DNA of 64,000 bases. It comes from Escherichia coli. GTDB lineage: Bacteria; Pseudomonadota; Gammaproteobacteria; Enterobacterales; Enterobacteriaceae. The number at the start of each line of letters is the position of its first letter. Within the stretch, counting starts at the first letter, position 1. The position numbers and the translations under genes are program-made. Below, in pieces: positions 5,374 through 46,158 of the stretch. The stretch lies in NCBI RefSeq assembly GCF_003334405.1, contig NZ_QOWM01000009.1; one strand, written 5' to 3'. Below the pieces are notes generated by a model. That model made no database searches. It was not told the DNA's origin and saw nothing but the letters and a program-made list of their open reading frames with translations.

Positions 5374-5775
5374 TTATTCACTGTCGCCGTGTTTAAATCG
5401 TAACAGGTCGCGGCGCTCTTTTTTGTCCGGGCGTCGGTCCGGGTGCGGCATGGTTAAGGCATTAAGTTTACGTGCCAGCGCCATTTTTTCGCGTTTCTCT
5501 ACACTTTCCGCAGTCTCTTCATACAGCAAGGCTGCCTCGCTGGCGGGGCGACGCTGTTCAGTAATCGCCTTTACAATCACCGTGCGTTCGTCATTTCCCT
5601 GGCGCAGAGTGAGCGTGGCATTCAGCTCGACGATTTTGCTCGGCTTGCTGCGCTGCCCGTTGTAATGCACCTTACCGCCTTCAATCATTTCACGGGCCAG
5701 CGCGCGGGTTTTATAAAAACGGGCAGCCCATAGCCATTTATCCAGTCGAACCTCAACAGCAGGTTTCTCTTTCAT
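5374..5775 (-). CDS. hslR: Ribosome-associated heat-shock protein Hsp15
   Basis: 133-aa basic S4-like protein immediately upstream of hslO on the same strand. Confidence 0.9.
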   Translation of the reverse strand: MKEKPAVEVRLDKWLWAARFYKTRALAREMIEGGKVHYNGQRSKPSKIVELNATLTLRQGNDERTVIVKAITEQRRPASEAALLYEETAESVEKREKMALARKLNALTMPHPDRRPDKKERRDLLRFKHGDSE

Positions 5776-42811: not shown

Positions 42812-43393
<582 letters not shown>

Positions 43394-43402
43394 TGATTTC
43401 TC

Positions 43403-43430
43403 GCGCGGGCAATCTTGCCCGCGCTTCTGC
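43403..43430 (+). terminator. Putative terminator after ppiA
   Basis: GC-rich stem GCGCGGGC / GCCCGCGC with 6-nt loop, followed by TTCTGCTCTC. Confidence 0.45.
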
Positions 43431-43497
43431 TCTCCCGGCGTAACCCGGATTTGCCGCTTATACTTGTGGCAAATGGACACGTTCAGGGAGGCATCAA

Positions 43498-43665
43498 GTG
43501 AAGAAACTCACCGATAAGCAAAAGTCCCGTCTCTGGGAGCTTCAGCGTAATCGTAATTTTCAGGCCAGTCGCCGTCTTGAAGGCGTCGAGATGCCTTTAG
43601 TCACTCTTACTGCCGCAGAGGCTTTAGCGCGCCTTGAAGAGCTGAGGAGTCACTATGAGCGATAA
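43498..43665 (+). CDS. yhfG: Small antitoxin-like partner of Fic (55 aa)
   Basis: Not in ORF track; hand translation from GTG 43498: [55 protein letters not shown]; 3' end overlaps fic by 11 nt. Confidence 0.75.
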
Positions 43666-44257
43666 ATTCGGCGAAGGGCGCGATCCGTATCTTTATCCAG
43701 GCCTTGATATCATGCGTAACCGGCTGAACATCCGCCAGCAGCAGCGGCTGGAACAGGCCGCTTACGAAATGACGGCGCTGCGTGCTGCGACCATTGAGCT
43801 TGGTCCGCTGGTGCGCGGTTTACCGCATTTGCGAACTATCCATCGCCAGCTGTATCAGGATATTTTCGACTGGGCAGGGCAACTGCGTGAAGTTGATATT
43901 TATCAGGGTGATACGCCGTTCTGCCACTTTGCTTATATCGAAAAAGAGGGCAATGCCCTGATGCAGGATCTGGAGGAAGAAGGTTATCTGGTTGGCCTGG
44001 AGAAAGCGAAGTTCGTCGAGCGGCTGGCGCATTACTATTGTGAAATCAACGTGCTGCATCCCTTCCGGGTGGGAAGTGGTCTGGCACAGCGGATCTTCTT
44101 CGAGCAACTGGCGATTCATGCCGGATATCAACTGAGCTGGCAGGGTATCGAAAAAGAGGCCTGGAATCAGGCAAATCAGAGTGGGGCAATGGGGGATCTC
44201 ACCGCACTGCAGATGATATTTAGCAAAGTGGTAAGCGAAGCCGGGGAATCTGAGTAA
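43655..44257 (+). CDS. fic: FIC-domain protein (AMPylator family)
   Basis: 200 aa; FIC signature region reads [12 protein letters not shown] at 44057-44092. Confidence 0.9.
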
Positions 44258-44288
44258 AATAGCGCGGTTCTTTTGTACCGGAGCCGCC

Positions 44289-44852
44289 ATGATCCTGCTT
44301 ATAGATAACTACGATTCTTTTACCTGGAACCTCTACCAGTACTTTTGTGAACTGGGGGCGGATGTGCTGGTTAAGCGCAACGATGCGTTGACGCTGGCGG
44401 ATATCGACGCCCTTAAACCACAAAAAATTGTCATCTCACCTGGCCCCTGTACGCCAGATGAAGCCGGGATCTCCCTTGACGTTATTCGCCACTATGCCGG
44501 GCGCTTGCCGATTCTTGGCGTCTGCCTCGGTCATCAGGCAATGGCGCAGGCATTTGGCGGTAAAGTTGTGCGCGCCGCAAAGGTCATGCACGGCAAAACC
44601 TCGCCGATTACACATAACGGTGAGGGCGTATTTCGGGGGCTGGCAAATCCACTTACCGTGACACGCTACCATTCGCTGGTGGTGGAACCTGACTCATTAC
44701 CAGCGTGCTTTGACGTGACGGCCTGGAGCGAAACCCGCGAGATTATGGGGATTCGCCATCGCCAGTGGGATCTGGAAGGTGTGCAGTTCCATCCAGAAAG
44801 TATTCTTAGCGAACAAGGACATCAACTGCTGGCTAATTTCCTGCATCGCTGA
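44289..44852 (+). CDS. pabA: Aminodeoxychorismate synthase component II (glutamine amidotransferase)
   Basis: Class I GATase catalytic Cys context GVCLGHQ; 187 aa. Confidence 0.95.
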
Positions 44853-44922
44853 TTTCTGATTGCCATTTAGTGATTTTTTATGCATATTTTGTGGTTATAA
44901 TTTCACATTTGTTTATGCGTAA

Positions 44923-46158
<1,236 letters not shown>

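Follow-up and report, generated by a model that had tools for sequence, protein, structure and literature searches.

A vertically inherited class I Fic pair of Escherichia coli, yhfG-fic, with a non-canonical FIC motif

Introduction

What can a Fic protein do when the motif with which AMP is transferred deviates at three of its positions, and what is the role of the small partner protein that is encoded directly upstream of it? The yhfG-fic locus of Escherichia coli raises this question. It occupies positions 43498–44257 of a 64,000-nt stretch of E. coli DNA, which is referred to as the window in this study and which provides all coordinates unless stated otherwise. The E. coli Fic protein is the founding member of the Fic family. 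The name fic stands for filamentation induced by cAMP, and the phenotype of the fic-1 mutation was described more than 40 years ago.

An earlier note on this DNA, made from the letters alone, pointed out the unusual FIC motif, predicted a weak or altered AMPylation, described the overlap of fic with yhfG as a toxin–antitoxin-like arrangement, and suspected that this might already be documented. The suspicion was well founded. In their paper on the crystal structure of the complex, Stanger, Harms, Dehio and Schirmer, who gave the pair the name EcFicT/EcFicA, describe the motif, the partner, the structure and the absence of adenylylation (PLoS One 2016, PMC5033356). The deviating motif, the partner protein YhfG, the structure, the missing AMPylation and the vertical inheritance have thus all been in print since 2016, and nothing about them is new here.

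Results

The yhfG-fic gene pair

The two genes lie between ppiA and pabA and correspond to the E. coli ecficA/ecficT pair (EcFicA/EcFicT). The gene yhfG (ecficA; 43498–43665, plus strand) starts with GTG and encodes a FicA-type partner protein of 55 amino acids, and fic (ecficT; 43655–44257, plus strand) starts with ATG and encodes a class I FIC-domain protein of 200 amino acids. Both genes are named as such in the RefSeq genome annotation. YhfG scored 127 bits against NCBIfam NF007573 (cut-off 77) and Fic scored 430 bits against NF007672 (cut-off 181); since both proteins surpass the equivalog cut-offs, yhfG and fic are not a chance pair of open reading frames. Pfam PF10832 is recorded on YhfG orthologues, and Fic belongs to the FIC (Fido) family, for which PF02661 has been precomputed on identical or near-identical proteins and structures have been solved. 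The coordinates and the reading of the earlier note proved correct for the 55-aa yhfG with its GTG start, for the 11-nt overlap with fic, and for the co-directional pabA, which is located at 44289–44852 on the same strand, 31 nt 3′ of fic.

The pair in the window is the same as the EcFicT/EcFicA pair of strain K-12 that was crystallized (PDB 5JFF and 5JFZ). Fic matches the chains 5JFZ_A and 5JFF_A with E-values of 1e-133 to 1e-134 over all 200 residues, including the FIC motif, and YhfG is identical to the partner chains (5JFF_B and 5JFZ_B) over 55 residues, engineered mutations of the crystal constructs aside. The PDB chains carry tags, the cloning change S2G, and one of two mutations, G55R of Fic or E28G of YhfG, and they have His at Fic residue 27, where the window has Arg (CGC, 43733–43735). 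This residue is the sole difference from the K-12 protein; it is a strain polymorphism distant from the active site. At residue 55 the Fic of the window has the wild-type Gly (43817–43819) and hence is not the fic-1 allele.

Sequence elements of the transcription and translation unit

An inverted repeat, GCGCGGGC-AATCTT-GCCCGCGC (43403–43424, plus strand), directly follows the stop codon of ppiA in our reading of the sequence and forms the upstream boundary of the yhfG-fic unit. Its stem arms, with the core GCGGG...CCCGC, are kept in Salmonella, Klebsiella, and Leclercia, and the loop differs. The repeat is a putative ppiA terminator; a consensus terminator scan of 43300–44950 did not flag this hairpin on account of its weak T-run. 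In the spacer between ppiA and yhfG, the block GCTTATACTTGTGGCAA (43456–43472, plus strand), which contains a TATACT hexamer resembling a −10 element, is invariant in Escherichia, Salmonella, Klebsiella, and Leclercia, and the remainder of the spacer is conserved at about 77%.

The fic promoter upstream of yhfG is reported to depend strictly on sigma-38 (sigma-S) (PMC3089606, PMC3141248). The published primers for this promoter map to 43292–43309 and 43550–43568 of the window, and the fragment between them contains the invariant block, which is probably the core of the sigma-S-dependent fic promoter that drives yhfG-fic, with TATACT as the presumptive −10 element. A promoter scan of 43300–44950 detected no sigma-70-type promoter 5′ of yhfG, which is expected because the published promoter is sigma-38-dependent.

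Both start codons are preceded by conserved ribosome-binding sequences. The Shine–Dalgarno sequence of yhfG, AGGGAGG (43485–43491, plus strand), lies 6 nt 5′ of the GTG codon within CAGGGAGG, which is invariant in the four genera, and that of fic, GAGGAG (43644–43649, plus strand), lies inside the last codons of yhfG, with a GGAG core that is also invariant in the four genera. The sequence ATGAGCGATAA (43655–43665, plus strand) spans the 11-nt overlap from the start codon of fic to the stop codon of yhfG, as read from the sequence; fic is read in the +1 frame with respect to yhfG, and Salmonella, Klebsiella, and Leclercia show the same letters and the same geometry. This arrangement suggests that yhfG and fic are co-transcribed from the sigma-S-dependent promoter 5′ of yhfG and that the overlap may couple their translation.

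Distribution and gene order

The 895-nt segment that extends from the stop codon of ppiA to the start codon of pabA was present in all 5426 complete E. coli genomes (5426/5426), at 5429 places that are all chromosomal except one and in which the genes are annotated as yhfG and fic. In 5424 of the 5426 genomes, the query coverage of this match is 80% or more. The neighbourhood follows the order tsgA-ppiA-yhfG-fic-pabA-argD-yhfK-crp, and from tsgA to yhfK the order, the gene lengths, and the 11-nt overlap are all the same in the loci of Salmonella, Klebsiella, and Leclercia. It should also be mentioned, with respect to the neighbours, that fic lies directly 5′ of pabA and that crp lies about 4.1 kb 3′ of fic in the locus examined (L004, 24973–25605), in an order that is conserved across the genera.

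Type II toxin–antitoxin systems are expected to be mobile, patchy in occurrence, and horizontally spread; yhfG-fic is found at a single chromosomal site with synteny in four genera. Close EcFicT homologues have been reported to be limited to Enterobacteriaceae and to lie in syntenic loci, from which vertical inheritance was deduced (PMC5033356). The locus is therefore toxin–antitoxin-like in architecture only, being a vertically inherited core locus and no mobile addiction module. In this architectural sense, the toxin–antitoxin-like arrangement described in the earlier note stands.

One complete genome, that of E. coli MS 21-1 (NZ_CP146670.1; L005, 3262–6280), has fic interrupted by an IS21-like element, ISEc10 (istA/istB), and an intact yhfG, representing a natural fic knock-out in which the partner gene is kept. 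Since a fic knock-out is viable (PMC5033356) and this disruption exists in nature, the function of fic is dispensable in the laboratory.

Rare ORF calls in which YhfG and Fic are fused, by a frameshift or deletion at the overlap, to a single protein of 252 or 233 aa were encountered in public assemblies (P0001 and P0005), on Logan contigs of 1.4 and 17 kb. These fusions are probably assembly errors; a real YhfG-Fic fusion would resemble a class II Fic protein with an N-terminal inhibitory helix.

PADLOC matched Fic (window 43655–44254) to the candidate phage-defence family PDC-S04 (profile PDLC04838, E = 3.9e-75), a family that is unvalidated. The match is strong, and a defence role for fic was considered; it was set aside on account of this status of PDC-S04 and of the housekeeping nature of the neighbours (ppiA, pabA, and argD). 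A scan of the whole window (1–64000), which includes the rpsL-rpsG-fusA-tuf region, against Rfam at gathering thresholds gave no matches, and hence no known RNA element at yhfG-fic.

The FIC motif and its conservation in a discrete clade

The FIC signature loop comprises Fic residues 135–146 (44057–44092, plus strand). The translation of this region in the earlier note contains no error, and the three deviations that it listed are real: in comparison with the canonical HPFx[D/E]GNGRxxR, Fic has V139 in place of the acidic residue, S141 in place of Asn, and L143 in place of the first Arg (R1), and it retains H135, F137, G140, G142, and R146. The motif is therefore not that of a canonical AMPylating Fic protein. 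The exchange of Asn for Ser at position 141 is considered the least important of the three deviations, being structurally tolerated and present in about half of the clade.

The deviations are shared by the close relatives. Among the best 120 cluster representatives, which share 79–100% identity and come from Escherichia, Salmonella, Citrobacter, Klebsiella, and Leclercia, the motif reads HPFR-hydrophobic-G-(S/N)-G-(L/M/I)-xQR, except in three variants, each of them seen in a single sequence (Cys at 138, Cys at 141). Among the representatives of clusters at 50% identity, the full-length matches at no more than 50% identity carry nearly all the canonical HPFREGNGRxxR, so that the EcFicT-like state appears as a discrete derived clade. 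Three odd entries of this set (P0122, P0125, and P0129) that might have passed for intermediates between the canonical and the EcFicT-like state were rejected as a fused ORF call and error-ridden reads.

Which positions distinguish the clade was determined in an alignment of 113 full-length EcFicT-like relatives (at least 79% identity) against 112 canonical sequences. H135, F137, G140, G142, and R146 are invariant in the former and nearly invariant in the latter, and N132 is Asn in 112 of the 113 EcFicT-like sequences. Position 139 is Leu, Ile, Val, or Phe, position 141 is Ser or Asn, and position 143 is Leu, Met, or Ile in the EcFicT-like set. In addition, the EcFicT-like sequences have A36, Y67, F71, E79, Y83, and Q84 where the canonical sequences have E, F, Y, T, S, and K; written from the canonical to the EcFicT-like state, the clade-specific switches are E36A, F67Y, Y71F, D55G, T79E, S83Y, and K84Q. 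They reproduce the specificity positions published previously (PMC5033356). Being hydrophobic at R1 and at the D/E position, having A36, Y67, and F71, and lying in the syntenic enterobacterial locus, the Fic of the window belongs to the EcFicT-like subgroup 3 that was defined by Stanger et al. (2016).

In comparisons of the E. coli gene with those of Salmonella, Klebsiella, and Leclercia, the non-synonymous divergence (pN) of fic was 0.087–0.126, against 0.084–0.128 for pabA, at a synonymous divergence (pS) of 0.62–0.75, at which synonymous sites are saturated. Because the pN of fic equals that of pabA while the synonymous sites are saturated, fic is under purifying selection.

The YhfG partner and related complexes

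YhfG carries SRRLEG at residues 24–29 (43567–43584, plus strand), which a regular-expression search found to match the Fic inhibition motif [S/T]xxxE[G/N] perfectly and which the earlier note does not mention. SxxLEG is present in 113 of the 120 YhfG cluster representatives, and S24 and E28 are each kept in 119 of the 120. A separate small upstream protein with [S/T]xxxE[G/N] is what defines a class I Fic system (FicTA), and the sequences match the co-crystals 5JFF and 5JFZ, for which contacts of the Glu with the second Arg of the FIC motif (R2) have been described; in the crystal structure, S24 and E28 of EcFicA contact R146 of the FIC motif (PMC5033356).

Two related complexes serve for comparison. 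VbhT/VbhA of Bartonella schoenbuchensis (3SHG, 3ZC7, and 3ZCB; E = 6e-33) agrees with EcFicT/YhfG in its fold and in the way the antitoxin binds, with an rmsd of 1.36 Å to EcFicT/EcFicA (PMC5033356). However, VbhA is built of three helices and YhfG of two helices and a loop, and VbhT, unlike EcFicT, is encoded on a plasmid, bears a BID domain at its C-terminus, and inactivates gyrase and topo IV as a canonical AMP transferase. The second complex, Fic-1/AntF from Pseudomonas bijieensis 2P24 (8WT0), consists, like the E. coli pair, of a class I Fic protein of about 200 aa and a small upstream partner. Fic-1 aligns with EcFicT without gaps over residues 1–196 in the same numbering (E = 2e-49), and S24 and E28 of AntF contact R146, as in YhfG. 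In contrast to EcFicT with its V139, S141, and L143, Fic-1 has the canonical motif HPFREGNGRAQR, AMPylates GyrB, and is toxic. AntF was not detected in a sequence search from YhfG.

Discussion

We consider it probable, judging from the conservation of the pair and from the published structures, that yhfG-fic is a FicTA-type module of class I which became a core locus by domestication, and that its Fic is an ATP-independent protein with a remodelled, conserved pocket, which would still operate as an enzyme with its regulator, on another substrate. In the crystal structures, YhfG wraps around Fic and places SRRLEG in the active site, so that R146 is bound by S24 and E28. Fic has preserved its FIC fold together with the catalytic His135, the GxG anion nest, and R146, and has swapped the Arg that binds the β-phosphate of ATP (R1) for Leu and the acidic residue that binds Mg2+ for Val, together with alterations of the neighbouring A36, Y67, and F71. 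With both R1 and the acidic residue replaced, Fic is therefore not expected to act as an ATP-dependent AMP transferase, in line with negative results in vitro from two laboratories. The catalytic His, the anion nest, R146, and the Glu of the partner are conserved under purifying selection, which suggests that the active site is still in use.

The negative results and their counterparts in the literature deserve a closer look. Neither auto- nor target-adenylylation by EcFicT could be demonstrated, even when the inhibition motif was mutated, and the loss was attributed chiefly to the Leu at R1 and the hydrophobic residue at the D/E position; the co-varying A36, Y67, F71, and T40 make up a hydrophobic groove that was proposed to bind an undiscovered substrate (PMC5033356). 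When EcFic (b3361) was combined with E. coli GyrB or ParE and 32P-α-ATP by Lu et al. (2020), it was absent from the proteins that were active (PMC7479194). Both studies support the prediction of weak or altered AMPylation that the earlier note had made from the motif. At odds with PMC5033356, a table in one review lists EcFicT as AMPylating gyrase and topo IV (PMC8097203), and another review states that expression of EcFicT strongly inhibits growth (PMC10886550).

If these reviews are followed, EcFicT would still AMPylate type IIA topoisomerases, weakly or conditionally, and would count as a bona fide FicT toxin that needs special conditions such as high temperature or high cAMP. The fic-1 allele (G55R), which acts as a gain of function and causes filamentation at 43 °C with cAMP (PMC5033356), would fit this, as FicT toxins filament cells via gyrase and topo IV. 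Nevertheless, we regard it as very improbable: the assays that speak against it include one with the inhibition motif mutated and one in which EcGyrB and EcParE were offered and EcFic was not among the proteins that labelled them, the replacement of R1 and of the acidic residue extends over the whole clade and goes with the co-varying E36A and F67Y, and the published structure indicates that Tyr67 would clash with an Arg at R1 (PMC5033356). The same negative assays and the loss of two residues that bind ATP and Mg could instead be taken to mean that EcFicT is a pseudoenzyme whose FIC fold is catalytically dead and serves as a scaffold for binding or regulation, YhfG being its structural partner, and the conserved surface patches outside the active site (PMC5033356) would suit such a scaffold. 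This is unlikely in our judgement, because the invariance of His135, the GxG nest, and R146, the near-invariance of N132 (112/113), and the retention of S24 and E28 in YhfG would not be readily accounted for by an idle active site, and because fic-1 behaves as a gain of function. Still another reading is that the pair is a decaying relic of a toxin–antitoxin system under neutral drift, to which the degenerate motif, the viable knock-out, and the single natural IS disruption could be referred. We give it hardly any credence, as the non-synonymous divergence of fic is as low as that of pabA at saturated synonymous sites, and as length, overlap, and synteny are identical across the genera and the locus match is nearly full in almost all of the E. 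coli genomes.

A different activity is suggested by analogy with the Pseudomonas complex. It was reported in 2026 that Fic-1/AntF deAMPylates GyrB, that the Fic-1 variants E139A and R143A lose AMPylation, and that only Fic-1 H135A and AntF E28G lose deAMPylation (PMC13327609). In the common, gapless numbering, EcFicT naturally has V139 and L143 and keeps H135 and R146, and YhfG keeps S24 and E28. By this analogy, EcFicT-YhfG might be a dedicated deAMPylase that does not add AMP and that strips it from proteins, for instance from GyrB or ParE that foreign FicT toxins have AMPylated, with His135 of Fic and Glu28 of YhfG as the catalytic residues, and a stable, non-toxic, and vertically inherited complex would be a better fit to an eraser than to a toxin. 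The possibility is worth entertaining but remains a minor one. EcFicT-YhfG is not discussed as a deAMPylase in PMC13327609, the flap that docks the target differs from that of canonical FicTs (K84Q, T79E, and S83Y), which makes recognition of GyrB or ParE doubtful, and the additional hydrophobic groove that is conserved in the clade (PMC5033356) finds no explanation in deAMPylation. A further point concerns the class II proteins FICD and EfFIC, in which the acidic residue of the motif and a metal participate in deAMPylation; this counts against a deAMPylase that has Val at this position.

Precedents exist for Fic proteins that have changed their substrate along with their motif. Doc is a kinase and AnkX a phosphocholine transferase, and both have the Fic fold and an altered FIC motif (PMC5033356). 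In both, the motif has changed in other ways than in EcFicT and the substrate is known; they are likened to EcFicT by fold alone.

For the Fic family, a deAMPylase activity of EcFicT-YhfG, if true, would mean that the founding Fic protein is an eraser of AMPylation, which might, for example, confer immunity to FicT toxins that come in from outside or serve as a reset enzyme of the stationary phase. To return to the reading that we prefer, the yhfG-fic pair of E. coli is most likely no decaying toxin but, as its conservation suggests, still an enzyme with its regulator, which would act on a substrate other than ATP.
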